A stretch of DNA of 58,359 nucleotides, filler included, from Jimgerdemannia flammicorona (lineage: Eukaryota): assembly GCA_003990765.1 (NCBI GenBank). It is 3 parts of 3 records of this genome, joined end to end, with 100 filler letters (N's around TTAATTAATTAA, not from the genome) between each part and the next. Parts side by side here need not be neighbours in the genome. Positions count along the whole stretch, not along the records: positions 1 to 19,398 come from RBNJ01001951.1; 2 more parts are not named here. One strand, 5' to 3'. Positions 13-49,114 of this stretch are shown here, piece by piece. The notes under the pieces were generated by a model that ran no database searches, was not told where the DNA came from, and saw only the letters and a program-made list of their open reading frames with translations. The stretch's first letter is position 1. Each line of letters opens with the position of its first letter. Made by a program: the position numbers and the translations under genes.

Positions 13-700
13 TATAGAGATAGCCACCCCTCCCACCATCACTCTTTTCTCCAATACTCCTAACATCAACTCCTAATATCAACTCCTCCTCCTCAAACCC
101 CACCTCTCTTCTTCTAACCCCTTCAAGAACTTCACTAAGGTAGCTCCTTTCACCTTCTGGGCCAAAGGCCCCAGAACTATTATTGCCATAACTATTAAGC
201 CTTAGAAGTACAATGTGATAGTAAATTTGGATACTGATTTCTTGAGTAATAGTGCTGCCACCAGGTCCATTACACCATCAGTCAAGTCTCCAGGTCTTGT
301 GCCCTGCTCCTGTCTAGTTCCACCATCAGCCATCATATCTGGATTTTTTTCTAAATTAGCAGTCCTCTCATCATTAGTAGTCCTACTCCCCCCAGCCACT
401 ACTCTCCCAGCCCTGCCACTATTACTCTCTGGAGCTGCCCTATCAGTCTCTACAGCCCTTCCCTTCCCCTTATCTCCCTGCAGCCAGGTCTTTAAGCCTG
501 TTAATGAGTGTCCAGCATTGACCTTATCAGCAAAGCTCACTCTTCCAGTCCTCTATTTCTCTACACCACTTCCTCTCCTTCCATATCCACCAGCCAGCAA
601 GTCCAACAGACTTCCCCCCAAGCAATGACTCCTCTCTACATGCTGTCAGTCAAATGTATTAGAGCTGCTCTACCCAGTGTACTCCTCCAAATACTCATTA
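13..700 (-). mobile_element. Probable 5' part (ORF1/gag-like N-terminus) of a non-LTR retrotransposon
   Basis: CpG-free sequence that is purine-rich on the minus strand, like the LINE at 39.3-43.2 kb. ORF 202-540 is low-complexity and basic (SFADKV...GDKGKGRAVE). No diagnostic domain is visible. Confidence 0.4.
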
Positions 701-2086
701 GTTGCTATTTTATTATTATCTTTGTACCAAAATCTGTATCAAAAGTATTGCCTGAAGTTTGTATAATATGAATTATAGTAGAGAGAGGTGTGCTTAATAT
801 TTCTCCTCTTATATAATAATTAAGTATATTATAAGAATATCTTATAAATAGAATTTTTTTCTTTATATATCTACTAATAGTATTAATATTTGTATAATTA
901 ACTAGTCTTAATTCTACTGTATATATTAAATAAAATCTTATGGTCAAGGAGCTATCAAGATTACTTACAGAGTATAGCAAATAGTAAAGTAATATTGCTA
1001 TAGAGTCAAAATCACTAACAGTTTATAATAGTAGTTCTATTATAGATAACAATTGAATTTATATAGCAGTTAATTTTCACAGAACACTATACTTTTCTGA
1101 TATTATGATACTTGTCTCACCAACTGATCTAAATGCTGATTGTAAAGAAGGAGTAGTCTGTATATATAATTATATAAAAATTCTGATACTTTTAAATTTT
1201 TGCAATAATTCTTTTGCACTCATTCACTAGTATTAATTTGTTTATCACAAACTCATTCAATAACATCTTCTTAATTATCCTTATCTCAAGTTTCATAACT
1301 CTCATCATTTTGATTTAATTCCACTATAGTGTATAAAAAATATAGTCTATATTATTCTTGATTTTAAAGCAGAGAGAAAGAGTAATAATTATTTCTTTGT
1401 CAAAATACTGATTTGGTTATATAGTGTATATAGTTCTTCATATTTTTTATCTAATATATGTTCACTATATTGGCTAGCACTCTTAGTTATTTTTAAAATA
1501 TTTGTACAATATTCTCTCATTAGTAGGATAATTCTTATAAGGCATTTTAACAATCAGTTATTTCAGGAATAAATTAAATAATACCAGGTCTGTTCTGTGT
1601 AACTCAGTAATCATATGAATAATAGTCAGTCTTAAATTATCACTTTTGTATTACTTAGCAGCTATACAAATATCAGTCACTTGTTCTAAATTGAGTACTA
1701 TTCTAATGATAACTATGACTTACTGCAGCAGATTTCTTATTCAGTATACACATAGTCCCCAGAACTTTAAAATCTGTAGCTTTAATGTCTTTAGAAAATC
1801 TTCACTGAATCTAGATAAATTATATAGTAGAATACTATATATAGAATTTTCTACAATATTTAACATTATATTTAAATTCTTTATAAAACTTTATACTGAT
1901 TATGTGTAGCATTCTCTTATATATAATATGTATATATAATTATTTAGTACTAATTTAGTATAAAATAATTCTTTACTAAATCTATATTGAATTTTGTACT
2001 ATATTTAAGTCAGTACAGAATCTGATACTAGATCTTGTATCCAATATTTTCTGCACACATTTTCTATAAAGCTCTATACTGAGTAT
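701..2086. mobile_element. Highly degenerate AT-rich repeat remnant; host of the Ty3/gypsy insertion, apparently resuming at 10889-10947
   Basis: CpG-free and TpA-rich. The 4-bp TSD GTAT shows that 2086 and 10889 were once contiguous. The family is not identifiable. Confidence 0.35.
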
Positions 2087-3647
2087 TGTCACATAGTGGT
2101 TACTGAGTCCTTCAAATACATCAGATTCTCTTCAAGGTGTATCTCTTAGACTAACTTAAGTTTGTTATAAGCAAGTTCTTATTGGAGTACCTTCTTAAGG
2201 TCTTATAATCCTCAAACTTCTTATCTTTAAACTGTCTTGTTATCTCTTCAATTGCTTGCAAGAAATTGTGTATATTGCACTAAGTAGACTGACTTTATTT
2301 CAGAGGAAATAAGAGGGATAATTATACAAAATATAATTCAATGGTTGCAAAGATATAAAGCTAAATATAAATTCCAATAACTAAAATAAAATACCAGGAT
2401 ATAAAAAACTGATAAGTTCCAGTATCAGCACTGATGGTTGCACAGATTCAGAATGCTAGTATAATTTTGGTAATATAGAAAAATAGTGCTGGAATAATTC
2501 TGAGTCACATCAGAATACCAGTGGAGGAACAGCTATTATATGGGAAAAGAGTGCTGACATAATTCAGTATAACCAAGGGTCTTAGAGTAGAATGTTCAAG
2601 ACTATAGAGGCTTCATCCTCATCAGAGGTCAGGATGTCTTTGAAGGAGATGAGTCTGTAAAGGTTTTGTCCATCCTGTCATCATTGCATAGGTTGTGTAT
2701 TTCACATATATTGTATGGAATGATGTCATTGCTGATGACATCATCACATTTGGTGGGGAAATCAGAGGCTCTCCAATCTATGAGATTCTCTTCCATAAAA
2801 TAGGAGACAAATGTGCAGTCTTGGAGAGGTCTAACTTGGATACTTGGGCCTTGGAATACTGAGATCAATCCTTGCAGGAATTTGTCTGGGTTATTCTGGA
2901 GGATGGGATGCCAGTAGTCTTCTACTTCATTACTATTGAGGGTGATAGTGGACTGGGCTTCTGTAGCCACCCTGGCTTCTAGTGCATTGATACAGCAGGC
3001 AGACAGGTCTCTGAAGTCTGAGACTCTAACATACTCCAAGTTGGGAATCAACTATGGTACATGCCTGAAGATCTGATGGATCTTCTTAGCTATTCTTGTT
3101 TTGTATATATTCATGAGAGTAGTATCTTGTAACTGTTGAGGGCTGGCCTGTGGGAACTCCCAGCAGAGGAGGTTTCCTATTTTGTACTCCTGCCACATTT
3201 GGAGGTATTCAGTAGCAATGCTGATCCTTGTTTCCATTTCATAGCAGTAGAGGATATAGTGATAAGAGTCTGCAGTACTCAGGTTGACACTAGGAGTCCT
3301 TCTAGTGTGGGTCCTCATGGCTCTTCTGATGTCTTGGAACATCCTTTCCTTGACTGAGGTGTCTTGGTGGTTCCTTGACCTTGAGGTTTGGCAAGCAGCA
3401 GACATTTTATTTGTGGTAAGTCTTTGAGCTATTTTGGAATTAGTGAGTCTTGTTGGTTGCTACTACTACAGTTCCTTGATTCTTCTTTTATATTCCTCAA
3501 GATATCTGGACTGTGGTCACAATGACTCACAGTTGGTCATCATTACTCATCTTGTATACCATATAATCTTCTTATACTCCAATCTGGTGGCTTGTAAGAA
3601 AATGCTGTCTCCTGTGCTAATGTTATCATTCTGGGGTCACCATTACA
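2087..3647 (-). repeat. 3' LTR of gypsy copy 1 (1561 bp)
   Basis: tgtcacatag...caccattaca; aligns end to end with 9343-10888 and 47572-49114. Confidence 0.95.
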
Positions 3648-3715
3648 TCTTCCTCCTGAATAAGGATCTTCTTGAATATCCTTATTCATTGGTCTAGTCA
3701 TGAAAAATTTGCTAA
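2629..3715 (-). pseudogene. Accessory ORF crossing the PPT into U3 of the 3' LTR (about 350 aa when reconstructed; function unknown)
   Basis: One frame reads ...MTRPMNKDIQEDPYSGGR|CNGDPQ...RYLEEYKRRIKEL...MSAACQTSR...YKIGNLL...IAKKIHQIFRH...TS. The stops are TGA/TAG, explicable as single C>T or G>A changes; TAG at 3052 is TGG (W) in the other LTR. Confidence 0.75.
3648..3657 (-). promoter_or_regulatory. Polypurine tract
   Basis: AGGAGGAAGA on the minus strand immediately before the TG of the 3' LTR. Confidence 0.85.
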
Positions 3716-4009
3716 TCCCATAACCTCTGGCAAGGGGTCAAAAAGTGGTATTTTTGGGCTGGCATCTTCTCTATATATTTTGGCATGATGGTGAAGGGTC
3801 GCTCTCTTTATATAGAGCAAGGGCCTGATTCGGATCTTGACCAATCAGTTGACAGTTCAAACTCCTCTGACTTTGAAAGTCTTATTAATGAGTAGTTGCT
3901 GGTACCATATTCCTTAGAGAATGGTTCAGATAGATAGTCTGCTGGTCATGGGACATGCTGTTATGATTTGCAGACTAGAATCTCATGGACAGTCATCATG
4001 TTTTGCTTC

Positions 4010-7000
4010 TCTTATATAGGTTCATAGTATTTCTTGAGTCTGTTTCTGTGTACCATAGTAGGCAGTATGGTCCCTGCGATTTTTCTAAGCCAGTAGGTAG
4101 TTCCCTTGATATCTTGCATATAGAAGGGTCCTTCCCATTTGGGCTCCAGTTTTCACAACCATGAGGCTTCTACCATATTTCAATATAGTAGGACCTTTTC
4201 TCCAATTTGGATGGGTTCTAGGGTCTTGTGATTCTTTTCTACATTCTTTCTTGTCAGTACTTGTGACTTGATGATGTAATATTCAGCCTTCTCTCTGATT
4301 TAATATAGTCTCTGGATTTCTGCATTGACCTATCTCCAAGTTAGGTCTAGATTTGTAGCTGAGGTTCCATCAGAATCTTCTTCTCCGAAGAGCAGTTCTC
4401 TTGGGGTAAAGTGTGTGCTCTGTGATCATATGTCTCATAGAACTGAGAGGGCAGTTGGGAGGTAGTTATCCCAATTCTCATATGTCTCTGAGATTTTCAC
4501 CTGGATGTTCTTAAGAGTCTTGTTGGTTCTTTCTGTCTGTATTTTCTTGAGGGTGGTATGCCATGGTCTTGATGTGTAGGATCTTATATTTCTGATATAT
4601 TATCTTGTGGAATCTATTGACAAATTCTGTGCCATAGTCTGTTGTGATTTGCTTCAGTATCTTGTAGTGGCAGATGATTTCTCAGTACAGGAAGTCAGCT
4701 ATAGAGAGAGCATTGGTTTCTTGTAATGCTCCTGCATCTATCCATTTGGTAAAGAGGTCTACAATAACTATAATATAGTGGTTTCCTGATATTGTTACTG
4801 GTAGTGGCCCAATGATATCAATTGCAATGTGATGGAAGGAGATAGGCTCAATTCTTGATGACCCAGATATCTGGTCTTGCTGATCTTGTTTCTGTTTTTG
4901 GTACTTATCACACCCTTTGACAAATTGGTGCAGGTCTTCTTCTATCTTGGGCCACTACATGGTTCTTCTTGCCTTGTCATATGTGTTGGTTCTTCCTAGG
5001 TATCCTTGCTCATGTACTTCCTTCATTACTTGATACTTCTTGTATTCAGATATTACTAGCTTTCCTCTTTTTCTGAGTATAGTGTTGTCTAGTTCAAACT
5101 GTTTCCTAGTCAGGTTGATAATGGTGATTGTCCAGGATTCAAGATAGTTGGATATCTTCCACTGCTCAAGATAGCTGATTAATTCATAGTATAACTCCTT
5201 ATTCATATTGAATAGTCTTGATGGGGGTGTTTTGAAGTGTCCTTGAGAGTGCATCAGCATTTGTGTTAGTTCTTTCTGAGCAGTGCTTGACAGTATAGTC
5301 ATACTCTTACAGTCTGTAGATTCATCTGGCATATATTCCTTTGGAGTTCAGAGTGTGGAATAGCCAGGCAAGAGCAGAATGATCTGTTTGAATGGTGAAG
5401 TGTTTCTCAGCTAGGTAGTAGTGGAACTTGTCTACTGTCCAAACTACTGCTAAGCATTCAAGCTTGCATGACTTGTAGTTTTGTTCTGCCCCATGGGTAC
5501 CTCAGCTTGCATAGGAGATGACATATTCATATCCATCTTTCTTCTGAGCTAGGACTGTTCCAAGTTCAATAGCATATGCATCTGTCTGCAGGATGAATTC
5601 TAGGTTCCAATTTGGTCTTCTGAGGCTGAGTGCTTGGGTCAATCTGGTCTTGAGTTTATTGAAGGTTTCTTGGTGTTCCTTGGTCCATTCGAATTTGGTC
5701 TCCTTCTTCAGTAGCTCATAAATAAGTGTTGCAATATTGGAGTATCCTTTAATAAATCTTCTATAGTAGAGGCCAGTCTAAGGAAGGCATGGACTTCTGT
5801 AGTTGTTCTGGGTCTCAGATAGGCTACAACAGCCTTGATCTTCATAAGGTCTGTGTAGATTTCAGTCTGGTTGATGAGGTGTCCTAGGTAGGCAATTTCC
5901 TGAGCTGCAAACTTGTATTTCTTGGGCTTAATTTAGAGGCCATGCTCCTTGAGCTTCTTGAGGGCTAGCTGTATGTGATTGATATGTTCTCATGCAGTGT
6001 TACTGAAGATGATCATATCATCAATATAGACAAAGAGCCATTTTCCAATCTCATTACCGAAAACTCTGTTCATTATTTGCTGAAAACTTACTGGGGTATT
6101 GCACATTCCAAATAGTATTTGTAGGTAGATTTAGGTAGCATCAGGTGTGATGAAGGCTGATTTCTCACTGACATCTTGAGTGAGACAAATCTGATGGAGG
6201 TCTGAGAACAGATTCAAGGTGGTGTAGTATTTGGCTTTACTTCTAAGAGTGGTAAGGATTTTTTGAATATTTGGCAAGGGCTGCCTATCCTTCTTAGTGA
6301 TTGCATTGAGCTTCCTGTAGTCAATGCAGAGTCTTGACACAAACTCTCCAGGCTTGCTTTCTTTCTTCAGAGGAAGAACAATGGGTGAAGCCCAGGGACT
6401 GATAGCTTGCTTGATGATTCTAGCTTCTTCCATTTCCTTGAGTTCTGCTTGCAGCCATTCTCTGTAGGCAGGTGGTATAGGTCTGGCTTTCTGGTAGATG
6501 GGTTTGGTATCAATAGTGTCAACTTCATGGTAGTACTTGAGTTCTTGATTATGGATATCTCTAAAGTCTGTAGCCAGTACTCCTTTGTTCTGATACAGGA
6601 TCTTGAGAAGTTGTTCTTCCAGAGGAAAGTTTTCTCCAATAGTATATGTGTGCTTGTTCTGGTCCCTGCCTTTCTTGTGCTCAAGTTTGGTGATCTTGGT
6701 GGTAGCATAGACTCCTCTTCCAGTAGATCCAAAGCCTTTTTCTCCTCTCTTGGTCTTGATGAGTTCAATGGCTTCAGTGATCTTGGACTTCTTGATTTTG
6801 TAGATCAGCATCTGGCCAATCCTGTCATGCTTCTTGACTTCAAATGGGGTAGTGGGGTTGTGATTCCTGAATATGAGGAAGATCTCACCAGTATAATCAG
6901 AGTCAATTCTCCTTCAACTGAGATTTCACTTTTGGCCAGACTGCTCCTGGTCTTGATAATTCTGGCATGGTTCTCTGGCAACTTGACTCCAATTCTAGTG

Positions 7001-9221
7001 CCAAGTAGGGTGGTGGTCTGTGGTTCAAGGGTAGTATCTGAATACTGGCAAGGTCCATTCCTATGGCTCCTTCAGTCTTGTATTCTGGGATTTAGGCTTC
7101 AGGGTGGAATTTCTTGATCTTGAGAGTGATATCTGGTTCTTGTTCCTCCTCATCATCACTGTCAGCTTGAAGCTCTGGGGGCTGGTCATCTTCTTCAGCT
7201 TTCCTTTTTGCTTAAGCAGCTTCTTACTCATGCTTCTGTTGGCAGATTTTCCTGACTTCACTGATATAGAACCAGCAGTCATTCAGGTGTTCAGAGCAGT
7301 ATATCCTAGTACCATGGGGGCATCTTCCTTGAGGGGCATAGCCATTGATGATCTTGTTGTACCACTGCTCATCTGTGAGCTTGGGTGTCTTGTTCTTATT
7401 CTTGTTCACTGAGTACATGAAGACTTCTGTGTCCTCCTCATCTCCTTCCTCAATGTCTGGTAGAACTCCTTTGTAGACATTGATAGAGACTTGTACCTTT
7501 CTTCCTCTATAGTTGATCTGTATCTTCTAGGAATTGAGGTCAATGATGGCCTTGGCCTTGTGACACCATTGGTTGCCAATAAGGATGTCATAGTTGGTGG
7601 CACTTGTAACAATTATATCTACTGGGATAGTAGCTCCTCTTATCTTGATGGGGACTTCTCAGATCTTATCAAGTGGGGTAGCTCATATACCATCTGCTGT
7701 GACATAGACCATCTTGGTAGACTCTTCAATGTCCCAACCTAGGCAGTCAATTGTCATCTTGCTCATGAGGCATCCTCCAGCACTAGTATCAATGATGGCA
7801 TTAAAGATACAATCTTCAATCTAACATTGAGTATAGGCTGATGTCTTGCACTGATCTTTAGATTCTTCACCTGAGTCTTCTTGATCATCTTCTTATGTAT
7901 TGTGAGCTTCTACAATCTTGTACTCTTGATTCTTAGCAGTAGTTACAAGTTCTACTCTCAACTACTATCTGAAGGCAGAGACTTCAGCTAGCTATCCAAA
8001 AGTAGCATTGACCTTCTGTTCTTTGAGATTCTTGTAGATATCATACTGGTGGATCTTGGTCTTGTACAGCTTCTGTTCCTTCTTGCTTTTGCTTTCTCCT
8101 GTGACTAGAGTAGTGCCTTCAATGATTTGGCAGACAGCTTCATCTAACTTCATGTCTTGATCAATCTCCTTGGGTTGGGTCTTGCTTTGGATAGTAACAG
8201 CTGGAGTCTTCTTTGGTCTTCCAACTGACTTGCTGTTGCTCTTCTTGTTATAGAGCTTGGACCAGGTTCTGGTATCTTCAGTAGCAGGGTAGAATTCGAG
8301 CTCCTCATAGTATTCTTCATTATCAGTATCACCAATCTCCTCAATGACTACTGCATTGGTTTGTTCTCTGGTTCTGCTAGCATTGCTTGGTTGGGCTTTA
8401 TGTCTTGTTTCAGTCATGCAGCTCTTTGCATAGTGGTCTTCTTCTCTACATCTGAAGTATGTGATATTGTATTCTTCTGTAGCAGCTGCAAATCTCTGTA
8501 CTGGTCTCCTGTTGGCACTTCAGACTTCTCTAACAACATCACCAAGGTGTGCAGTCATCTCAGTGAATTGCTTTGTGAGTTCCTCCACTGGGTCAGCTTT
8601 GGCTGTCTTGGGGATAGGTGGAGATGGTTGTCTGTTTATAACTGTGGTGGGTATGATTCTAGTTGGCTTTGATGGCTCTATCTTGATGTCAGTTATTTTC
8701 TCCATTGAGTGTTCAGCAGGGTGTCTGGCAGTCCAATATCTTTGTGCAAAGATCACTTTCTGATCAAGGGTCAGTGTAGCTGGAGTAGACTGGATTGCTA
8801 GGGCAATTTCAGGATGAACTCCTTTGAGAAAGGTTGAATCTGCTATTTGTTCCTTAAGGTGGTCATCATAGCTAGCCAAGACAATCTGGTAGTAGATTTG
8901 GGTATAGAATGAGTTGGGATATTCACTGAGTCTCTGGTATATAGTATTGAGTTGATCTTTGAGAGCTTGCTTGATCTTTTTAGTATAGTATATTGTTCTG
9001 AGGAAGGCCTTTATGTTGGCAAGTTTGGCTGCACCATTATCAGCAATAGTGACTACTTTGAACTTATCTCTGGCAGGTCCTCTGAGGCTGATAGATAGAA
9101 GAGCCAATTGTGCATCCACATTAAGGGCTTGTACAGTGATGAATTGTTCAAAGTCTTCAATGAAGGTCAGGATTGACTCTTCAGTAGTATATTTATAGAA
9201 TATGGGGAGATGTATTTCCAT
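4010..9221 (-). pseudogene. gag-pol of gypsy copy 1 (capsid, Zn knuckle, protease, dUTPase, RT, RNase H, integrase), disrupted
   Basis: Gag ORF 8520-9221. Decayed knuckle YFRCREEDHYAKSC. Protease AIIDTSAG near 7790. dUTPase RGEKGFGSTG near 6740. RT motifs SPWASPIV, RLCIDYRKLN and YIDD near 6020. RNase H ILQTDA. Integrase with WEGPF motif near 4135. Confidence 0.93.
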
Positions 9222-9322
9222 CTTATACTTGAATTCTTGCAGGGGTGACTCTTGTAGTCGGGGTAGTTATTGTGGTGGTTGTTTATTTTTCAGCTTGAAA
9301 GTGAGGGATTCATCTTGAATCA

Positions 9323-9339
9323 CCAGTCAATGGGCACCA
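9323..9339 (-). promoter_or_regulatory. Primer-binding site
   Basis: TGGTGCCCATTGACTGG begins 3 nt after the 5' LTR end. The priming tRNA cannot be assigned because of mutation. Confidence 0.7.
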
Positions 9340-9342
9340 AGT

Positions 9343-10888
9343 TGTCACATAGTGGTCGCTGAGTCCTTCAAATACATCAAATTCTCTTTAAGGTATATCT
9401 CTTAGACTAACTCAAGTTTGTTATAAGCAAGTTCTTATTGGAGTGTCTTCCTAAGATCTTATAATCCTCAAACTTCTTATCTTTAAACTGTCTTGTTATC
9501 TCTTAGATTGCTTGTAAGGAATTGTGTATATTACACTAAGTAGACTGACTTTATTTCAGAGGAAATAAGAGGGGTATTTATACAAAATATAATTCAATGG
9601 TTGCTAAGATATAAAGCTAAATATAAATTTCAATAACTAAAATAAAATGCCAGGATATGGAAAACTGCTAAGTTTCAGTGTTGACACTAGATTCAGAATA
9701 CTGGTATAATTTCAGTGATACAGGAAAATGGTGCTGGAATAATTCTGAGTTACATCAGAATGCTGGTGGAGGAACAGCTGTTATATGGAAAAAGAGTGCT
9801 GGCATAATTCAGTATAACCAAGGGACTTATAGTAGAATGTTCACGACTATAGGGGCTTCATCCTCATCAGAGGTCAGGATGGCTACAAAGGAGATAAGGT
9901 CTGTGAATGTTTTGTCTGTTCTGTCATCATCATGTAGATCATGCATTTTACATATGTCATGTGGGATGATAATCACCAATGACATCATCACATTCAGTAG
10001 GGAAATTGGGGACTCTCCAATCTATGAGGTTCTCTTTCATGAAATAGGGGACAAATGTGGGGTCTTGGGAAAGTCTAACCTAGATGCTTGGGTCTTAGAA
10101 TACTGAGATCAATCCTTGCAGAAATTGGTCTGGGTTGTCCTGGAGGATGGGATGCCAGTAGTCTTCTACTTCATTACTATTGAGAGTGATAGTGGACTGG
10201 GCTTCTGTAGCCACCCTGGCTTCTAGTACATTGATATGGCAGGCTGACAGGTCTCTGAAGTCTGAGACTTTAATATACTCCAAGTTGGAGATAGACCATG
10301 GTGTATGTCTGAAGATCTGATAGATCTTCTTAACTGTTCTTATTTCACATATATCCATAGAAGTGGCATCTTGTAACTCTTGAGGGCTGGCCAGTGAAAA
10401 CTCCCAGCAGAGGAGGTTTCCTATTTTGTACTCCTGCCACATTTGGAGGTATTTGGTAGCAATGGTGATCCTTGTTTCCATTTCACAGCAGTAGAGAATA
10501 TAGTGATAAGGGTCCAGAGTACTCAGGTTGACACTAGGAGTCCTTCTTGTATGGATCCTCATAGCTCTTCTGATGTCTTAGAACATCCTTTTCTCAACTG
10601 AGGTGCCTTGGTGGTTCCTTGACCTTGAGGTTTGATGAGCAGCAGGCATTTCATTTGTGGTAAGTCTTTGAGCAATTTTGGGATTGGTGAGTCTTATTGG
10701 TTACTGCTACTGCAGTTCTTGATTCTTCTTTTAAATTTCTCAAGATATCTGAACTGCGGTCACAATAACTCACAGTTGGTCATCATTACTCATCTTGTAT
10801 GCCATATGATCTTCTTGTGCTCCGATCTGGTGGCTTGCAAGGAAAGACTGTCTTCTGTACTGATGTTATCATTGGAGTCACCATTACA
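9343..10888 (-). repeat. 5' LTR of gypsy copy 1 (1546 bp)
   Basis: Direct repeat of 2087-3647; contains the same ORF (10095-10562). Confidence 0.95.
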
Positions 10889-10947
10889 GTATATACTGAA
10901 TACAGATTCCATACATACTATATATAAGAATATTTTTCAGATGATGT

Positions 10948-13854
10948 TACTCATACTTAGGAGGTAGAGTTATTGATTCTATCTCAAGAGATATCTGGAG
11001 GTATAGATTGTATACTCTGGTTTCTTTATTATAGTTGAAGTAGTTAGGTATAAATGTAGATTGATACTTATACTAGTAATCATTATTCCAATAGGTCTTA
11101 TAGATAGTTATAAACTATTATACGTCTATTAGTATGATTAGTAGAGTGATCAAAATTGGTAGAGATTCTTAGCTTATAAGAGAATACTTTATTAGAGTAC
11201 TGTTATATAGTTCTGGAAGGTTTTCAGGAAGTTCTGGATATTCTGAAAGATTATTATTTTGAGATCAGGTTTAATTTCATATAGAGTATATCCTCTACAC
11301 TTATTGATTTCAAGATTAGTTAACATCTCAACTAAAGTCCCTTTTACAGACTTATTCTAGATATTTAGAATTTTCTATATTTCAAGAAGTTTAAGAAATT
11401 AAGACCAGCTTAGTGGAATTAGTATATTACTGTAGATAATACCCAATTAGGAAATTTTGGAATCTAGTTTGAAGTTGGATCAAATAGAGTAAGAAGTTAC
11501 TTAAGAGTAGTTTGTAGATTATTAAATAGGTTTAATTGCTATTCATATTACTGCTATACTAAGAGTAGTGTGTAAAGGAGTATTTGTGTAGAGAAGTATT
11601 CTTGACTTACTTGTCTGTTCTGATCTGTTCTTGTCTATATTCTTGTCTATATTTCTGAAATCTGGTGGAGTAGTTATTTATACTAAAAGAAGACTATCTT
11701 GATATCCTTTGATGAGATCACTATTGACAATATCATCTCTGATAAAGTAGTCATCAAGGAAGAGTAGTTCTTGGATTACATCTCTCTATTTATTCATATA
11801 GTAATATATTGGAACTATATCACTATTCTACAGAATGGCATCATTTGTCTCATATACTAAATATAGTATTGGTGAGTGAAGAAGGGGTGTATTGTCTTCA
11901 CTTTCATTAGATTTGCCATCTGTATATCTTTAGTAGATTATAGTGCTATGAGTTGTAGAGTTGTAGTAAGCTAACAGCTGTGGTTTATTTTACTCATAGT
12001 TGAGAGGTGGAGTTGTCAGTTCAATCTCAAGAGTAGTCTAGAGGTACAGATTATGTTCCCTTGTCTCTTCATTGTAGTTGAAGTAGTTAGGCATAAATGC
12101 AGATTGTTATGCATGCTAGTGATCATTATCCCAAAGTAATTATAAACTATTATAAGTTTATCAACAAGACTAGTGGGGTGATCAGGGCTAGCAGAGATCT
12201 ATGACTGGAGGTCATATTAGTATCAGAGAGATTGTTGTCTTCTGCTTCATCATTGTCAAACTAGATTATATTTTAAATATTCTTTATAATATATCTAACT
12301 TAGAGCATTTGCAGGATATAGTTGTTAGGGTGCAGTAAGGTCTGTCTGTGGTTTGAGTATACTCAATATACTTATGGTTGAGTTCTTATACTATATTATT
12401 GATTTGGACATAGGTCAGAGTGACAATCATTTCAGTAGTAGTAGCTTAGAGAATAAGATACTGTACTTATAAACAAGTTCTTAGTATTTGTGGGTGATGA
12501 GTTTCTGGTGTTGCAACATTTTAGTAATATTTGTATCATAATAATGATTTACCATATCTTCTTGGAGGTGACCAATCTGATAGTAGCTTGAGATTTGTCT
12601 GATAGGGTAGGTCTTACTAAGTATATTCAGGACATTTTGTCAGGCTTCAACAAAATAGAGAGATGCTTGGCTATAGATATTTATGAGAGATAGAGGGGCT
12701 GTAGCTTCATTGATAATAGTATTCTAAATATCAGCATGAATGCAGTTATAGATTTTAGTTGTCATATCTGAGTATATATTTGAGAGTTGTGATTATTTGT
12801 CTGATTAGTTGTGGTTCTCTATTTTGATTTATAGGATAGTTGGTATATATTCTTCTAGGTCTGATTAGTAAGATCTTGTTTTTGTATAAATCTTATTCTA
12901 TGACTTTGAGTTGACTCAGTTTCATGATCTGTAACTTCAGTTTGACTTAGCTTTATAATCCTATATAGGATTTCTAGATTGTTCTGAGAGGGACATGTAA
13001 TTTAAATAGCTTAAAGATTGTGCACTTATATACTTAGAGGTTATCTCAGTATCAGAGGGGTTATTGTCTTCTACTTAATTATTATTAAGCTGAATTATAT
13101 CATAGATATTCTTTATAGTATATCTAATTTGAGATATTAATAAGATATGATCATCTGTACAGAAAGGGTCTGTCTGTTGTTTGGATATATCTGATATATT
13201 TCTAATTGAGTTTTTACATCATATCATTGATTTAACCATAGGTCAGAGTGATAACTATTTCAGTAATAGGGAATTAGAGATAGAGAATAAAGATACTATA
13301 CTTATAAAGAGTTGATAGTATTTGAAAGCAATAAGCTTCTAGTGTTGAGATATTTTGGTAATATCTATATTATAGTAGTAATTAACTATATCTTTCAGAA
13401 TATGGTCAATCTGATAATAGCTTATGATTTGTCTAACTTAATAGGTCTTGTTAAGTATGTTCATCAGGCTTTCATGAAATAGAGTAGTACTAGACTATTG
13501 ATATTCATTAGGAGTAAGGATTCTGTAGTCTAATTGACAATAGTATTCCAAATGTCAGTATGGATGTAATTGTAGACTTCAGTGGTTATGGCTGAGTATA
13601 TTTTTGAGAGTTATAGTTATTGTTTAGTTTGTTATAGTTCTCTGTTTTAGTATATTATATATCTGGTATATATACTTTCAATCTTGATTAGTAAGGTTCT
13701 ATTTTCATATATCATATATTCTATAACTTCAAGTTAACTTAGCCTCATAATATATGACTTTAGTTTGACTCAGCTTTGTAATCTTATATTTGATTTCTGA
13801 ATTTGTTCTATGGGTGATATATGATTTTGGTGACTTAGAGATTGTATACTTATA
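10948..13854 (-). mobile_element. Truncated LTR of family X (copy A), split by copy B
   Basis: 10948-11174 joined to 13036-13854 aligns continuously with 17231-18289 (gattcttagct|agaggttat). It ends in cttata. Confidence 0.75.
11175..13030 (-). mobile_element. Solo LTR of family X (copy B, about 1.86 kb) nested in copy A
   Basis: Ends TATAAG...CTTATA, read as mutated TGTAAG...CTTACA. Collinear with 16224-18289. Imperfect 5-bp TSD TAGCT/TACTT. Confidence 0.8.
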
Positions 13855-16753
13855 ATCAGACACACCTATACTTACAGATATACCTATGTCTAGTAGATAT
13901 ACCTGGTCACTCTCTTCTCTAAATAGCATTACTATATATTCTATAGTTAGCTACATAGTAACCCGATAGCAACTACAACTGGTTAAAATATTCTAGAGAT
14001 AAAAGTGAATAAACCTCAGTCTGAAAATTAAAGTAAAAGCTAATTTTTTAATATACTTAGAAGGAGAAATCTATCAATGAGCCACTGTTAAGAAGTTGTA
14101 AACTATTTTTTACTCTAGTTTACTTTCTAATAGAAAGTTTGATTTGCTGCCAATTTTGAGTAAAAAACTTCTCTATCATTTTTCAGAAGAAACCCACCAC
14201 TCAAAACCAGTCTAGTATAAGATACACCTTTGTAGTAAATCTATTTGTACAAATGAAGTAGTCTTTAATATAACTTTGTAAAGTCTATTATATTTTAGTA
14301 TACTTGCCAGACTAAGTCTGAAGAATATTGCCAAGTAACCTGCTATAAAAGAAAAGACCACTATTTTCAAGTAAACTACTGATTCAGGAAGAATTTACAT
14401 TATATACTAAATTACCAACTCACTGCCTAATAAGGAAGTCTTCCAGATTGCACACATAATGTCAGATCATCATATAGAAATTATATATATAAGAAACTGC
14501 TCTTATTACACAACTCACTCAAGAAGAAAACTGCTAAAATTACCAAAATATCATTACACCCAAGAATCTGCTCTAATAAGAAATTACTTCACTAGGTATT
14601 ACTTGGTTTTGGATCATTTCAGAGTTGTTTTATACTATCCTGAAAATGTTGGCATGCTTTATTTGTCTTAAATATAGTGGTTTTATATCTATGAATTCAT
14701 CTGTCTAAGACATACATATGTATTATATAAAACATAGTAATAAAATGTCCTAGCTCCCACAGAGGCCATCTCTTAGCAATTTTGAAAGCTTTGACAGTTT
14801 GCTGTTTTTTTCTCTATATCTTCCTTTACTAGTGTGATTATGAATGATGACCAAATCTAACAATAATTTTACCAGACTACTTGGGCTGAGTGCACTGAAT
14901 ACTTATAACAGATTACCAAAGCTATTGTAGTCAGCCTTTGCCCTCCTCTAGTGGATCTAAAGATCATAAACAGTAGGGAATACTGATGTATCATTGACTT
15001 CCTTTTTCTCTATCAGCAGGCTGACAAATCCCCCAACCTCAGAAATACTATCAATGTAATAGACCTCTATGATAAGGATAGTGGAGACAAGGGATTCCTC
15101 ATCACTATCAAGACAAAGGCCATTGAGTGATATCATTTCCCTTTTATATTTATAGATATAGTACCTCAGGATAGAATTGAAGTCTATCTTACCTCTGCCA
15201 ACTTCCAAAAACTCCTCTGCCATAACCCTAAGCCAAGGTGGGGTATTTTCTACACCCTCAACATCAATGAAGTCTTTGCTGATGATTTTTCCAAGATAGC
15301 TTAGAAAGCAGACAAGGTTCTTGCTGATACTCAATGAGCAATCTATAATACCCTCTGCTCAATTGCCATTATCCTCCATGCCCTCAAGTCCTGCTTAGAT
15401 GAGACTAATATCTACCATAGACTGGTCAATGATACTATCATTCCCCCCTTGGTGGAAAAACTTCAGGACTCACTCTAGATCAGTTTTTATAAGGCTGAAC
15501 ACATCTAGATCTGCTGCTACACAGACTTTACCAAGGCCACTGACTGGTCTCCTGCCCTTCTCTCTGCTTGTCATACCATGACCTCAGACTCTAAATTTGA
15601 TGGTAATCTCTTTGGCACCAACTTTATCTACTATTTTTATAATGATGCCAAACATCAGAAGTACTGCATCCTTATTTGCAATGTGGCCAAACTTAGCCAT
15701 TATATAGATACTTCTTACTATAGTTCAACTCTCTCTGGGGACTAAGGCCAGGGAAATAGGACATGGGGCAACTACTGTCCTAACTACCACCAACAATCAT
15801 CCAGCTCTCAAACCCACACTCTGAATGTCAATAGCTATAGAGGGTTCTGTGCTCCATACTCAAGATACAGTATGTCTCAATCAACCACCCAACCCTGAGC
15901 CCTTCTCTCTATCACATAATTACCCCTAAGTCACTAAATGGCATATTTAAAATAGAAGTGCGACTTACTCAGATTCCAGAGCCTACTAGGACAGCTTAGA
16001 TATAGACTGCTGGGCTATCAATATAGTCTACAGTAAGACCAGGATTAAATAGAGGAGTCTCCCAAAACCTGTCTGGACTAAACCCTGGTTTTCTTATAAG
16101 TGGGGTATATTCCAGATAGAAAAGGCCTTAGTGGATATAGCCATCACTGAATTCTAGAATAAGGATGCTATCTACACTATCTCTCTCAGAAAGCCACTTC
16201 TTTTCTAACATCTTTACCATCCCTATAAGAGGGTTACTTATAAAAGTACTATTATATAATTCTAGAGGGGTTTTCTGGAAGTTCTAGATATTCTGGAAAA
16301 CCATTTTCTTTAGGTCAAGATCAATTTCATATAGAGTACATCCTCTATGCTTATTAATTTCAAGATTAAATTAACATCTCAACCAAAGTCCTTTTTTGGA
16401 CTTGTTCTGGATGTTCAGGATTTTCTGTATTTCAGGAAGTTCAAAAAACTAAGACCAGCTTAGTTGAATTGGCATATCACTGCAGATAATACTCAATTAA
16501 GAAATTTCATAATATGGTTAGGAGTGGGATTTAACAGGATGAGAATTTACTTAAGAGTGATTGGTGGGTTATTAAATAGATTTATTTGCTATTCATAATA
16601 TTACTATACTAGGAGTAGTTGTGAAGAGATATTATGGGGAAGTGTTCAGGAGTTCTTGTGTATTTGAATTGTTCAAGTCTGTTCAAGTTTATTCAAGTCC
16701 AAGATTCTGAGATCTGGGGGAGGGAGTATTTATATCAATGAGAGACTATCTGG

Positions 16754-16931
16754 ACTATGCTAAATATAGATATAGCACTTAGTGTCTTGTTGAGTCAGAA
16801 TGCAGTCACAAAGTACAAGTGTGAACTGATATGTCAAGAGATCATCTAACTACTGAGTCAGTATATAGTTACATCATATGAGGCTAATCTAACTATATTA
16901 ATGACTGCTAAGCTATCTATAAATTTAGATG
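16754..16931. mobile_element. Small MITE-like insertion inside LTR X copy C
   Basis: Absent from copy B. Flanked by the 8-bp direct repeat CTATCTGG. Imperfect terminal inverted repeats (ctaaatatagatatagc / gctatctataaatttag). Confidence 0.6.
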
Positions 16932-17029
16932 CTATCTGGGTAGTCTTAAATGACATTATCATCAATGACCTTATCTCTGATGAAGTAGTCATTTAGAAAG
17001 AGTGGTTCTTAGATTACTTCTCTCTATTT

Positions 17030-18289
17030 ACTCAGATAATAATATATTGGGACCATGTTACTGTCTCACAGAATAGTATCATCTGTCTTATATGCTAGGT
17101 ATAGAGTTGGTAGGCAAAGGAGAGGTATATCATCTTTGCTTTCATCAGATTTGCTATCTGTGTACCTTTTATAGGTTATGGTACTATGTGTTGCTGGATT
17201 GTAATAAACTAGTGGCTGTTCTTCATATTGCTCATACTTGGGTGGTAGAGTTGTCAGTTTGATCTCAAGGGTAGTCTGGATATATAGGTTGTGTTCTTCA
17301 GTCTCTTTATTGTAGTTGAAGTAATCAGACAAGAATGTAGGTTAGTACTTATACTAGTGGTTGTTATCCCAATAGGTCTTGTAGGTGATTATGAACTATT
17401 ATAAGTTCATTGGTAAGATTGGTGGAGTAATCAGGGCTGGCAGGAATCCTTAGCTAGAGGTTATATTGGTATTAGAGGGATTGTTATCTTCTGCTTCATC
17501 ATCATCAAATCAGATTATATTATAGATATTCTTTAGAGCATATCCAACTTGGGGTATTTGCAGGATGTGGTCATTGGGGTACAGAAAGGTTCTGTCTGTA
17601 GTTTGAACATACTCAATATACTTGTAGTTGAGTTCTTATACCATATCATTGATCTGGCCATAGGACAGAATGATAACCATTTTGCTACTAGTAACTTAGA
17701 GATGGGAAATAAAGGTGCTGTACTTGTAAAAGAGTTCTTGATATTTGAAAGCAATGAGTTTCTAGTGTTGAGACATCTGGGTAATGTCTGTATCATGATA
17801 GTATTTGACTATATCTTCTAGGAGGTGGTTGATCTGGTAGTAGCTTGAGATTTGTCTGATTCAGTGGGCTTCAATGAGCATTTTCAGGGCATTTCATTGG
17901 GCTTCTACAAAGTAGAGAGTTGCCAGACTATGGATATTCATGAGGGGCAGGAGAGGTGTGACTCAGTTAACAATGGAATTCTAAATATCAGCATAGATGT
18001 AGTTATAGATCTCAGTGGTCATATTTGTGTATATGTTTAAAAGTTACAATTATTTGATTGATTTATTACAGTTCTCCATTTCAATACATCTGAGTACTCA
18101 GTATATATATGTTTGGTCATGATTGGTAAGATTCCATTTGTATAAATCTTATATTCTATAACTTCAAGTTAACTCAGCTTTGTGCTCTGTGACTTTGGTT
18201 TGACTTAGCTTTGTGATCTTACATGTGATTTCTGGATTTGTTCTGAGGGTGATATGTGATTTTGGTGACTTAGAGGTTGTATACTTATA
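17030..18289 (-). pseudogene. LTR-encoded ORF of family X, apparently homologous to the gypsy U3 ORF
   Basis: The frame runs from the first LTR base: YKYTTSKSPKSH...IYADI*NSI...SSYYQINHLL...KLIAFKYQELF...LSYGQINDM. Stops are TAA/TAG/TGA consistent with C>T or G>A changes. ORF 17066-17332 is a likely downstream part after a frameshift. Confidence 0.65.
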
Positions 18290-22400: not shown

Positions 22401-22657
22401 ACGGAGTTGGTCGTTAAAATCATTACGATTCTTCCATGCCGAGATTTCTGTTTGGTGGTCTCTGTGCAGTTGGTCCCAGGGCTTGAGTCGGTCCAACAGG
22501 TTCTTTCGGTGTGTGTGGGCTGACATATTCTTAGGGATATTTTTGACGTAAAAACGATTTCGGTATTTAGTCAAGACAGATCAGAGGACGCCACCGATTC
22601 TGGAGGACAGCGGTGATTGGAGGCAGGTGTTTTCTTTTGGCCAATGGAATTACCCAT
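19499..22657 (-). CDS. Multi-exon TKL-type protein kinase fused to C-terminal RNI/NLRC3-like leucine-rich repeats (3' end lost at the gap; 5' end uncertain)
   Basis: Kinase motifs LAQGGFAKVY, VAAKEL, HRDLHAGNVV, DVG, YLPPE, SDVYCLG and QRPSA. LRR exons of exactly 84 bp with AG/GT borders at 20790-20873, 20623-20706, 20422-20505, 20267-20350, 20088-20171, 19920-20003 and 19668-19751, plus a partial one at 19499-19569. Repeat unit NEIGEEGARALAEFLKQNTTLTKLNL. Confidence 0.88.
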
Positions 22658-22744
22658 TCCGAGCCTTCGGAATTAAATAACCATGAGCAGAGCACTATGC
22701 CGTGATGCCAAAACCTTAGGAGGCAGTGTGACAACTGAGATAGA

Positions 22745-24540: not shown

Positions 24541-25742
24541 ATTTGGTCGGAAGGCTTAAATGGGGTGAGATGAAGAGTGGTCGGGTTGAATGTATTATAG
24601 AGTAGATGAGAGAAATTTTTAAAGGTTTTTTTTCGGATTTTCAGATAGAACGTTTTTTTTTTTTTTTTTTTTTTTTTTGAACTCTTTGAAGACACTGCAT
24701 CCGATTTTGTCTGCTTTATGTTCGTAACGCAGGTAATGGGACAATAAAAGTCATTGTGTGGTTGCAGATTTCTGTTTGCCATTATTGATCTTCAAGTACG
24801 GAATGATTAAAGAACAATGAAAAAAAATAGGCGCAGGTTCACACGGTTATTACCGTCATGTTCTCGTACTTCACCATGATGACATTGAATCATGGATCTG
24901 GCCGTCCCTTTGCGCTTCAACAAAATCCATTTCGATCTTAGGAATAATTTGACCCGGCCGATTCCCCAGCATGGAAGACGACAAGCTTGTGGAATTCGTC
25001 ACTGAGGCTGCGTTGTACATAGGGCCGCACTCATGGGATTTCGAAGAAATTTACTACATAATTATATATATATTGCGTTTCCGGGATGGGGCTTGGGTTG
25101 ACACATTGATCCTCACTGATAATCTACTCATTATGCACACACCTCAGATCAACCCCAATGTCTCGATCGGCCTCATGTTATGGTCAGCACGGATGTACGT
25201 ATAAGGTGCCATTGTCCTTGACAACGGCTCAATGTATGTACGTGCATTTCTCGTTCTTGGTCGAATATTTAATCCCTCGGCTAAAACTATTTTCCCCCAC
25301 TTCCCAAAAAGAACGGCACCTGCAGGTTCCACGCGAGGGAAATCCTATTTTTCGGGCGCCAGAGTACTATTGCTAGGAAGAGCCAGTCTGTAGGTTCGAC
25401 GGTAAATGCGCCTTCGATACTGCTATTTCTTGAATTTGTGAAACAAAGCTGTGAAACCGGTGTTTCGACCACTGTTCCGCAATTCACCTCCATGCAACAA
25501 GAACGTGACGCGTCGTTAAAGGTCAAAACTTAAATTCCCTTCCCTCTGGCAACTTCAAATATCATGCCCGATAACAAATTACTCCTGAGGACGCTCCCAA
25601 CCCGAAGCGCGCTTGGCGCCTTGATGAGCGACGTCGACTGCCTCAACCCCAGCCATTGATCCACCCGTTGGCCTACCTACCCCTTGACCCATCCATTGAC
25701 CTCAACCCATTTACCCACACGTTGACCCGCCATCCAAGTCTC

Positions 25743-46100: not shown

Positions 46101-49100
46101 TTCACCTGAGTTTTCAGATTCTTTCTGTATATTGTAAGCTTCTACAATCTTATACTCTTGATTCTTAGCAGTAGTTGTAAGTCCTACTCTCAACTGCTGT
46201 CTAAAGGTAGAGACTTTGGCTAGCTGTCCAAAAGTAGTATTGACCTTCTGTTCCTTGAGGTCCTTATAGATATCATACTGGTGGATCTTGGTCTTGCATA
46301 GCTTCTGTTCCTTCTTGCTTTTGCTTTCTTCTGAGACTAGAGTAGTGCCTTCAATAATTTGGTAGACAGCTTCATCTAACTCTATATCTTGATCAATCTC
46401 TTCAGATTGGATCTTGCTTTAAATAGTAACAGCTGGGGTCTCTTTGGTCTTCCAACTGGCTTTCTGTTGCTCTTCTTGTCATAGGGCTTGGACTGGGTTC
46501 TGGTACCTTCAGTAGCAGGGTAGAATTCAAGCTCTTCATAGTATTCTTTATCATCAGTATCACCAATCTCCTCAATGACTACTGCATTGATTTGTTCTCT
46601 GGTTCTACTAGCATTGCTTAGTTGGGCTTTGCATCTTGTTTTGGTCATACAATTCTTTACATAGTGGCCTTCTTCTCTGCATCTGAAGTTTGTGATATTG
46701 TGTTCTTCTGTAGCAGCTACAAATCTCTACACTGGTCTCCTATTGGTGCTTCAGACTTCTCTAATAACATCACCAAGGTGTGCAGTCATTTCAGTGAACT
46801 GCTTGACAAGTTCCTCCACTGGGTCAGCTTTGGCTATCTTGGAGATAGGTGGGGATAGTTGTCTGTTTACAACTATGGCAGGTATGATACTGGTTGGCTT
46901 TGATGACTTCATCTTGATGCTAGTTATTTTCTCTATTGAGTATTTGGTAGAGTATCTGATAGTTTAATATCTCTGTGCAAAGACCACTTTCTGATCAAAG
47001 GTCAGTGCAGCTAGAGTAGACCAGATTGCTAGGGCAATTTCAGAGTGAACTCCTTTGAGGAAGGTTGAATCTGCTATTTGTTCCTTGAGATGATCATCAT
47101 AGCCAGCCAAGACAATCTGGTGGCAGATTTGGGTATAGAATGAATTGGGATCTTCACTAAGTTCCTGGCAGATAGTATTGAGTTGATCCTTGAGAGCTTG
47201 CTTGATCTCTTCAGTATAGTATGTTGTTCTGAGGAAGGCCTTCATATTGGCAAGTTTGGCTGCACCATTATCAGCAATAGTAACTGCATTGAACTTATCT
47301 CTGGTAGGTCCTCTGAGGCTGACTGGTAGGAGGGCCAATTGTGCATCTACACCAAGGGCTTGTACCACAGCGAATTGTTCAAAGTCTTCAATGAAGGTCA
47401 GGATTGACTCTTCAGTAGTATATCCATAGAATGTGGGGGGATGCATTTCCATCTTGTCTTAAATTCTTGTAGGGGTGACTCTTGTAGTCAGAGTAGTTGT
47501 TGTAGGGTTGTTCATTTTTCAGCTTGAAAGTGAGGGATTCATCTTGAATCACCAGCCAATAGATATCAAGTTGTCATATAGTGGTCACTGAGTCCTTCAA
47601 ATATGCCAGATTCTCTTTGAGATATATCTCTTAGACTAACTCAAGTTTGTTATAAGCAAGTTCTTATTGGAGTGCCTTCCCAAGGTCTTATAGTTCTCAA
47701 ACTTCTTATCTTTAACTGTCTTGTTATCTTTTAGATTGCTTGCAAGGAAGTGTGTGTATTGTACTAAGTAGACTGACTTTATTTCAGAGGAAATAAGAGG
47801 GATATTTATATAAAATATAATTCAATGATTGCTAAGATATAAAGCTAAATATAAATTTCAATAACTAAAATAAAATGCCAGGATAGAAAAAACAGCTAAG
47901 TTCCAGGGTTGATACTGATGGTTGTACAGGTTCAGGATGTTAGTATAATTCAGTGTTACCTCAGAATGCTAGTGCTGGTATTATCTAGTATTACCTCAGA
48001 ATACTGGTGCTGGCATTATTCAGTATAACAAGAAACTTAGAGCAGAATGTTCAGGATCATGGGGGCTTCATCCTTGTCATCAGAGGTCAGGATGTCTTCA
48101 AAGGAGATGAGGTCTGCAAATGTTTTGTCAAGGTCATGTAGGTCATACATTTCATGTGCTTCGATGTCATGCAGGATGACATCATTGCCAATGATGTCAT
48201 CACATTTGGCAGTGGTGAGAACAAGGAGATCTGGAGCTCTCCAGTCTATGAGGTTCTCTTCTACAAAATAGAGGATAAATATGGGGTCTTAGAGAGGTCT
48301 AATTTAGATACTTGGGCCTTGGAATACTGAGATCAATCCTTGTAGAAATTGGTCTGGGTTGTCCTGAAGGATGGGATGCCAGAAGTCTTTTACTTCATCA
48401 CTGTCAAGAGTAATAGTGGACTGGGCTTCTGTAGCCACTCTGGCTTCTAGTACATTGATATAGCAGACTGACAGATCTCTGAAGTCTGAGACTCTAACAT
48501 ACTCTAAGTTGGGGATTGACCATGGTGCATGCCTAAAGATCTGATGGATCTTCTTAGCTATCCTTGTTTTGTGTATATCTATAAGAGTGGTATTTTGTAG
48601 CTCTTGAGTGCTGGCCTGTGGGAACTCCTAGCAGAGAAGGTTTTCTATTTCATACTCCTGCCACATTTGGAGGTATTTGGTAGTAATAGTGATCCTTGTT
48701 TCTATTTTATGGCAGTAGAGGATAAAGTAATAAGGGTCTATAGTACCAAGGTTGACACTAGGAGTTCTTCTTGAGTGGGTCCTCATGACTTTTCTGATAT
48801 CTTAGAACATTCTTTCTTTGACTGAGATGCCTTGGTGGTTTCTTGACCTTGAGGTTTGGTGGACAGCAAGTATTTTATTTATAGTAAGTCTTTGAGCTAT
48901 TTTGGGATTGGTGGGTCTTGTTGATTGCTACTACTGTAGTTCCTTGATTCTTCTTTTATATTCCTCGAGATACTCATACTATGGTTACAATGACTCACAG
49001 TCAGTCATTATTACTCATCTCATATATTATATAATCTTCTTGTGCTCCAATCTGGTAGCTTGCAAGGAAAGGCTATCTCCTGTACTAATGTCATCTTCTG

Positions 49101-49114
49101 GGGTCACTGTTATA
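43193..49114 (-). mobile_element. Gypsy-dUTPase copy 2: 5' LTR through RNase H, truncated at the start of integrase
   Basis: Collinear with 4960-10888. dUTPase GGVIDPDYTGEI (45074-45466). RT LDLFSGFHQI and RMPFG. Confidence 0.95.
47572..49114 (-). repeat. 5' LTR of gypsy copy 2
   Basis: tgtcatatagtggtcactgag...gggtcactgttata, with the terminal CA mutated to TA. Confidence 0.9.

Follow-up and report, generated by a model that had tools for sequence, protein, structure and literature searches.

This study concerned a stretch of 58,359 nucleotides, filler included, from the genome of the fungus Jimgerdemannia flammicorona (GenBank assembly GCA_003990765.1), which consists of parts of three records joined end to end and is referred to here as the window. 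It holds a Ty3/gypsy retrotransposon, element A, and a truncated sister copy, element B, and within their unusually long terminal repeats (LTRs) an open reading frame (ORF) was found on the sense strand. The LTR of this element probably carries a conserved, protein-coding accessory gene of its own, the product of which belongs to an orphan family. Because the ORF lies inside the LTR, in the sense direction, every insertion carries the gene twice.

The retrotransposon and its sister copy

Element A is a complete Ty3/gypsy element, as judged by its LTRs, target-site duplication, polypurine tract (PPT), and the order of its pol domains (Table 1). The LTR ends read TGTAATGG...GTGACA, and a sequence resembling a primer-binding site, ACTTGGTGCCCATTGAC, with TGG directly after the 5' LTR, is found at 9342-9326. 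In sense order, the Pfam domains were dUTPase and RVT_1 (6913-6131), RT_RNaseH_2 (5777-5502), and Integrase_H2C2/rve (5347-4682), and it was the pol order of reverse transcriptase (RT), RNase H and integrase that led to the Ty3/gypsy assignment. The E-values of dUTPase (PF00692) and RT_RNaseH_2 were 4.9e-10 and 4.3e-15, respectively; RVT_1, integrase and rve scored under the Pfam cut-offs, since the copy is degraded. The dUTPase domain lies just upstream of the RT, an arrangement that betaretroviruses and non-primate lentiviruses typically show as well. In the passages of PMC2864245 that bear on this point, a dUTPase is placed between the protease and the RT in fungal gypsy elements, such as PosPlaTy3-5, and gypsy elements with a dUTPase are described from Basidiomycota and Ascomycota.

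Element B (43192-49114) is about 86% identical to element A and is truncated at 43192, with loss of the 3' part together with the 3' LTR. The three LTR copies of about 1.55 kb could be aligned from end to end, using a repeat search and a three-way alignment. The copies of the ORF in the 3' and 5' LTRs of element A are called A3 and A5, and that in the 5' LTR of element B is called B5.

Table 1. Positions of features along the window
Feature	Position	Strand	Remarks
3' LTR, element A	2087..3647	-	1561 bp; TG..CA termini; repeat search and three-way alignment
5' LTR, element A	9343..10888	-	1546 bp; ~87% identical to the 3' LTR of A
5' LTR, sister element B	47572..49114	-	
Target-site duplication ATAC	2083..2086, partner 10889-10892	-	4 bp
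Polypurine tract AGGAGGAAGA	3648..3657	-	Abuts LTR start TGTAAT
Internal region, element A	3658..9342	-	Degraded gag-pol: dUTPase, RT, RNase H, integrase
ORF copy A3	2582..3405	-	ATG 3405-3403; one stop, TAG 3054-3052; 1-nt deletion near 2654
ORF copy A5	9827..10649	-	ATG intact; 3 stops in 209-codon core; 2-nt deletion in tail
ORF copy B5	48037..48873	-	278 codons in one frame; 4 internal stops (TAA x3, TAG x1); ATG -> ATA
TATA box TATAAAAG	3485..3492	-	Perfect; 87 nt upstream of ATG, A3
Conserved non-coding leader AAAGACTTACCACAAATAAA	3406..3425	-	Directly 5' of ATG
TATA-like TATATTTAGCTTTATATC and AATAAA, downstream	2294..2369	-	2369-2352 and 2299-2294; candidate main promoter and poly(A) signal of the LTR
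Upstream frame of the original prediction (..MTRPMNKDIQ..SGGR..GIQDE)	3537..3737	-	Three terminal stops, 3545-3537
Protein kinase gene, tyrosine-kinase-like	20936-22580	-	PK_Tyr_Ser-Thr, E 6e-26
Long interspersed nuclear element (LINE)-type (non-LTR) RT ORF	41261-42124	-	287 aa; RVT_1, E 1.5e-20
Second long direct repeat pair	11340-12754 and 16390-18011		74-80% identical; ~5.2 kb apart; very AT-rich
Inverted fragment	37033-37762	+	68% identical to element A 7421-8171

The reading frame, its product and its decay

A long sense frame of 276 codons, interrupted by a single stop (TAG 3054-3052), runs along the minus strand of the 3' LTR of element A (3459..2629). In 2000 dinucleotide shuffles of the LTR, read in six frames, the longest frame with no more than one stop was 207 codons. 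The long sense frame of the original prediction is therefore present in the LTR, although the continuity with the internal region that had been claimed for it was not found. The ATG of the ORF lies at 3405, which is 243 nt inside the LTR, and the start was placed there because homologues of four diverged subfamilies begin at this point with MP..R. The N-termini are MPAAR in P0003, MPALR in the metagenome contig L001, MPPIR in P0008 and MPPTR in P0014, and those of copies A3 and A5 read MSAAC and MPAAH. The ORF comprises about 273-278 codons and is wholly within the LTR (LTR positions 243-1066 of 1561). It occupies more than half of this unusually long repeat and accounts for its length, as had been proposed, but the protein is shorter than the predicted 350 or so residues, the close intact relatives having 247-291 aa. 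The family ends in ..DEAPxxLNFLL; in A3 the C-terminus, ..DEDEASIVLNILL, has been moved to another frame by the 1-nt deletion and ends at 2585, with a stop at 2584-2582. The TAG at 3052 is TGG (tryptophan) in both sister LTRs, just as had been noted before. In tblastn, only the three LTRs of the window matched the ORF.

Relatives of the protein are few. Among 107 candidates from a word-indexed search of 5.8 billion proteins, three were 71-77% identical to the window frame. A profile search of all 1.84 billion cluster representatives returned seven matches at E<=0.001, comprising five clear relatives (P0002, P0006, P0007, P0008 and P0009), the borderline P0011 (5e-4), and a spurious repeat protein (P0010). 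The corresponding profile search of the 5.8-billion protein set gave 12 matches at this threshold among 8000 scored candidates. Overall, about 15 intact homologues (138-342 aa) were recovered; the matches as a whole have open frames of 87-342 aa, either intact or limited by their contig, and identities to the query of 27-79%. Their sources are without exception JGI or ENA contigs from metagenomes, 567-4848 bp in length; none was found in NCBI or UniRef proteomes by the searches of 1.84 and 5.8 billion sequences. When metagenome contigs were searched with P0008, the only match was L001, a 1535-bp contig with an intact ORF of 291 codons at 376-1251, and the 4848-bp contig of P0008 itself was not recovered. 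The family alignment (A2) had no match in the metagenome scans, viral contigs gave none with A2, P0008 or P0014, and genome contigs gave none with A2 or P0014. Sequences of the family were present in four soil-metagenome DNA runs (shares 0.01-0.15), as 58 to 6139 short, transition-rich contigs per run, with thousands of contigs in one of these (run X1) only; in some soil metagenomes, then, the family is abundant.

The homologues, together with codon periodicity, the pattern of insertions and deletions (indels), and retention of the frame, argue that the ORF is a real coding sequence. Over 208 aligned codons, the identity between L001 and the three window copies was 0.49-0.53, 0.65-0.67 and 0.35-0.43 at codon positions 1, 2 and 3, respectively, and the proportions of differences were 0.40-0.42 at nonsynonymous (pN) and 0.68-0.79 at synonymous sites (pS), with just two gaps, both in frame. 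Indels that preserve the frame, which the original prediction had named as a mark of coding, were observed: the four that distinguish A from B within the ORF all have lengths divisible by three (12, 6, 9 and 3 nt), compared with one of the four in the rest of the LTR (1, 30, 2 and 1 nt). The frame is broken by two indels, one of 1 nt near 2654 in A3 and one of 2 nt in A5; each is confined to a single LTR of element A, and so arose after its insertion. Copy B5 holds one frame over 278 codons without a frameshift. Differences between the two LTRs of element A are spread evenly over the codon positions (27, 22 and 23), as expected for decay after insertion.

All three copies in the window are dead, through CpG deamination and two small deletions. 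The differences among them are mainly transitions, at a ratio to transversions of about 7-10:1, and in the LTRs of element A and its interior the ratio of observed to expected CpG is 0.00-0.07, as against 0.60 in the kinase gene (20936-22580), 0.95 in the interval 23000-30000, and about 0.5 in L001. A majority sequence of the three LTRs retains one CpG. Arginines of the intact relatives appear in the window as C, H, Y, W or a stop. The near-complete loss of CpG in the retrotransposon copies of elements A (2087-10888) and B (43192-49114), and its retention in the neighboring genes (20936-30000), points to repeat-targeted cytosine methylation and deamination. To account for the decay, deamination at CpG sites, presumably in methylated repeats, is enough. 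Repeat-induced point mutation, with C-to-T changes in the CpA-biased context of ascomycetes, may have contributed, but the apparent CpA-to-TpA and TpG-to-TpA changes are also expected from the independent decay of CpG sites. The same loss of arginines (R to C, H or W at many positions) was seen in a comparison of P0017 with P0014, in a frame that is still open. On this pattern, P0017 seems to be a member of the P0014 subfamily that has decayed at its CpG sites, and some of the metagenome 'proteins' of the family would already be decaying.

The product has no counterpart among described families. No Pfam family was matched at E<=1 by P0001, and among eight family members no relevant family was found, the sole match being ATG5_HBR in one of the eight (E 0.13), which is at chance level. 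A sequence profile search of the PDB gave no match at E<=10, and an hhalign comparison of the family with the element's own gag showed no similarity (probability 0.1). In a protein atlas, feature matches of at most 0.83 and structural template-modelling (TM) scores of at most 0.33, by query, were taken as noise, the model of P0003 having a predicted local distance difference test (pLDDT) score of 0.35. Helices in the AlphaFold2 models were predicted at low confidence. The conserved core includes the motifs W.EYEI, AKK[IV]HQ[IV]FRH.P, NP[IL]LQDNPDQ[FW]LQG and F[EQ]GP.I, and DLIxF and P..LNF[LT] are kept in the acidic tail. The predicted protein is acidic and soluble, and the five intact members have isoelectric points of 4.5-4.9. 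In four of the five the first 50 residues are net basic (+3 to +7) and the last 70 carry a net charge of -15 to -17, the corresponding values of P0008 being 0 and -8. Maximum hydropathy, in a 19-residue Kyte-Doolittle window, was 0.59-1.07, and no hydrophobic segment was found.

These features agree with the earlier view that the protein is not an envelope (env) protein. It has neither a Pfam match nor a hydrophobic segment that could act as signal peptide or membrane anchor, and its N-terminus is basic and polar. Resemblance to Sag is similarly lacking, with no Pfam match and no transmembrane segment, and so is resemblance to Nef, since there is again no Pfam match, the proteins start with MP or MS and not MG, and the ORF lies off the PPT. 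The basic N-terminus and the acidic, hydrophobic-studded tail invite an analogy with transactivators and adaptors; by that analogy the product might act for the element in the nucleus, as a regulator or adaptor that resembles transactivators or RNA-export factors, but this assignment is doubtful. In the soil contigs of run X1 that are at least 80% alike, the summed depth was 34 over the tail region (2514-2820, minus strand) compared with 700-940 at the ORF core, and this low cover fits a C-terminal third that is the fast-evolving, indel-rich part of the protein.

Signals around the gene and its expression

The perfect TATA box upstream of A3 has equivalents in the other copies, TATAAAAG in B5 (48953-48960, likewise 87 nt before the ATG) and TTTAAAAG in A5 (10728-10735), and TATAAAAG is also found in L001, 80 nt upstream of the ORF ATG. 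This sequence occurs 10 times on the two strands of the 58-kb window, and the chance expectation for a sense-strand match within a 30-nt window at the same distance is about 0.003. Between box and start codon, the 17-18 nt that directly precede the ATG (GACTTACCACAAAYAAAR) form the only similarity between the flanks of L001 and those of the window, with about 90% identity over 29 nt and a local alignment score of 37, compared with a maximum of 30 in 200 shuffles. Apart from this leader, neither the flanks of L001 nor its putative LTR gave a significant alignment with the window flanks. The leader measures 17 nt in the window against 18 nt in L001, and this difference of one base indicates that it is conserved as DNA or RNA and not as protein. 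Judged by the downstream TATA-like box and AATAAA, the ORF appears to lie in U3, upstream of both. A candidate intron, GTGAGT..CTAAT..TAG (about 3531-3430 in A3), was rejected, since A5 has neither its branch nor its acceptor motif and B5 lacks the branch motif.

The arrangement of these signals suggests, on a balance that is slightly favorable, that the gene is a self-contained cassette, with its own TATA box, an untranslated leader of 17-18 nt, and the AATAAA of the LTR as the end of its transcript. The upstream TATAAAAG promoter would then serve the ORF and the downstream TATA-like box the genomic RNA. The cassette mRNA would be about 1.1-1.3 kb in length, and could be made from either LTR as well as from solo LTRs.

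A different layout was met in L001. In the window, the junction pattern GGAGGRAGRN{0,2}TGTAAT has a single match, at the true PPT/LTR junction (3656-3642). In L001 it likewise has only one, which occupies 1252-1268 and begins at the base after the stop codon of the ORF (1249-1251); the pattern had no matches in shuffles of either sequence. In the lineage of L001, the cassette appears to be the last part of the internal region, flush against the PPT and outside the LTR. With such a layout, TATAAAAG would be the gene's own promoter and not that of the LTR. Inferred from this one relative, the U3 border would have shifted from one side of the gene to the other as the sister lineages diverged. A 28-nt motif (GTCAGGCGGAAC..TCAGAACA..) is present twice in L001, with 86% identity, at 170-197 (about 200 nt upstream of the ORF ATG) and at 1481-1508 (about 217 nt into the putative LTR), and could be a regulatory element common to two promoters, or due to chance.

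Other explanations of the gene were considered. The original prediction was of a nef-like ORF of about 350 aa that starts near 3700 and runs through the PPT into U3, the present stops and frameshift being recent decay. A short frame (MTRPMNKDIQ..YSGGR, 3701 to 3546) does read the PPT as S-G-G-R, transitions are heavy in all copies, and of the three TAG codons near 3465 the sister LTRs have CAG at one or two. However, this short frame is frame 0, as against frame 2 for the long ORF, and, far from extending about 1 kb into the LTR, the frame through the PPT terminates at TAA TGA TGA (3545-3537). Every one of the three LTRs has stops at the equivalent positions, the third reading TAA TAA TGA. The supposed poly-Q run, TAG TAG TAG at about 3465-3457, reads CAG TAG CAG and CAG TAG TAG in the sisters and is open in no copy. 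Nor does it help that the stops revert by single transitions, as this has no discriminating power when a single transition turns any stop codon of the standard genetic code into a sense codon. The ORF ATG of L001 is preceded, 17 codons upstream, by an in-frame stop, with no ATG in between, and the leader length is off by 1 nt. No fused or longer form was found among the proteins of 600-2000 aa that were searched, which is weak evidence. The change of frame, the stops common to all copies, and the start of homologues from four subfamilies at the ATG inside the LTR leave a nef-like layout hardly tenable. Capture of a host gene, or that of another mobile element, as a passenger useless to the retrotransposon is also very improbable. 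Foreign ORFs are captured by LTR retrotransposons, according to a passage of PMC5408684. Against capture, no homologue outside the small family was found in the 5.8 billion and 1.84 billion sequences, the NCBI and UniRef proteomes contributed none of the homologues, the gene persists to about 30% identity between subfamilies, with frame-preserving indels, and it is tied to the retroelement junction in both of the contexts that are visible.

How the gene is expressed allows of two further readings. If TATAAAAG were the sole promoter of the LTR, the ORF would lie in an R region of about 1.1 kb, as the first cistron of the genomic RNA, before gag. It is the best TATA consensus in the LTR, at a conserved position, the ATG, with an A at -3, would supply the first AUG in a good context, and ORFs upstream of gag are present in plant Ogre elements. 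This arrangement is nevertheless unlikely, because in L001 the TATA box and ORF precede the PPT/LTR junction, so that the box is not an LTR promoter, and because a second TATA-like box, with AATAAA some 55-70 nt downstream, occupies the usual site of an LTR promoter; to our knowledge, an R of about 1.1 kb would also be far longer than any known. Expression in the retroviral manner, from a spliced subgenomic RNA made by the 5' LTR promoter, would dispense with a promoter for the gene, and spliced RNA is the usual source of retroviral 3' gene products, those of nef and sag included. An acceptor exon could then contain the conserved leader, but no conserved acceptor was found (an AG precedes the ATG in L001 and not in the window), the intron-like string of A3 is not shared by A5 or B5, and the conserved TATA box would go unexplained, all of which makes splicing an improbable route.

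There are several points that weigh against a conserved LTR gene expressed as a self-contained cassette, the reading preferred here. Every homologue sits on a short metagenome contig, and the genomic context can be seen for L001 only, where the ORF is apparently not inside the LTR. The 'LTR' of L001 is itself known by the 17-nt junction motif only, and the 270 nt that follow have no significant alignment to the LTR of the window. Under the strong transition bias, the Nei-Gojobori omega of the two LTRs of element A, 0.52, served as the neutral baseline, and the value for A versus B (0.36-0.41) is little below this, so that it is a weak signal alone. TATA and AATAAA motifs are weak predictors, and the conservation of the downstream block may merely reflect its lack of CpG. 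The four sequencing runs that contain the sequence are all DNA runs of soil metagenomes, with no RNA run among them. Finally, the AlphaFold2 models had mean pLDDT values of 35.4 (alignment of 5 rows) and 43.1 (8 rows), and gave no support for a fold or function.

Neighboring features and known systems

The remaining features of the window (Table 1) include other mobile elements. The LINE-type ORF lies in a strongly C-rich stretch (39000-43000) that abuts the truncation point of element B at 43192. The inverted fragment is what remains of an element more distantly related to A, and the second pair of direct repeats are probably the LTRs of an older element; between 11340 and 18011 no ORF was found that is related or comparable to the LTR-borne ORF. 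For the protein kinase gene, the nearest language-model clusters are commonest in Mucoromycota, as judged by language-model features only.

Among retroviruses, one of the nearest parallels in layout is the sag gene of mouse mammary tumor virus, a sense ORF inside a long LTR (>1.2 kb) that takes up most of U3 and is thus present in both LTRs; betaretroviruses also have a dUTPase, as does element A. Sag is a type II membrane glycoprotein. The ORF product differs in having no sequence match to it and no membrane anchor, and element A, whose host is a fungus, is without env. The phrase 'LTR contains an ORF' occurs in a passage of PMC9412291. Like nef of the human and simian immunodeficiency viruses, the gene is an accessory gene of the 3' end that shares its DNA with U3, but nef begins upstream of the PPT and reads through it, whereas the ORF here starts within the LTR, and that of L001 ends directly before the PPT. 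The family proteins also start with MP, lack the N-terminal MG myristoylation signal, and have no Pfam match. Foamy viruses offer another comparison, since tas/bet are 3' accessory genes that extend into U3 and have a dedicated promoter, apart from that of the LTR. The phrase 'ORF in the U3' occurs in a passage of PMC11362648. The conserved TATA box before the ORF, which is internal in L001, suggests a promoter logic like that of foamy viruses, and by the same analogy the acidic tail and basic N-terminus of the product would fit a transactivator. The analogy finds no support in sequence or fold, and element A is a retrotransposon without env.

Extra ORFs are also carried by other Ty3/gypsy elements, such as Athila, Retand and Ogre of plants, the bdelloid elements with ORF3, and Cer1 CERV, and an 'add. 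ORF' is labeled in fungal gypsy elements in the legend to Figure 3 of PMC2864245. In the passages that describe them, these additional ORFs of LTR retrotransposons are internal, and none is inside an LTR. The layout of L001 would be of this ordinary, internal kind and that of the window is not. In the full-text literature that was searched, LTR-resident ORFs were found for retroviruses only; subscription journals and Repbase lie outside that scope, so that the unpublished status of such a gene in retrotransposons is unproven. A selectively maintained, LTR-resident gene in a Ty3/gypsy element would extend a layout regarded as typical of the complex retroviruses (sag, nef, bel) to a retrotransposon, and its product is rated as a new orphan protein family. 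More tentatively, and with the balance still against it, a fungal Ty3/gypsy lineage may have independently evolved an organization of the 'complex retrovirus' kind, with an autonomous LTR gene for a trans-acting nuclear regulator, and with migration of the border.

If true, each solo LTR would be a working copy of the gene, supplying its factor in trans, and not a dead relic. Retrotransposon LTRs pass for non-coding sequence and are routinely masked; this could be the reason that the family has been seen only in gene calls from metagenomes. The gene would also provide a concrete case for the co-evolution of accessory genes and the U3 border.

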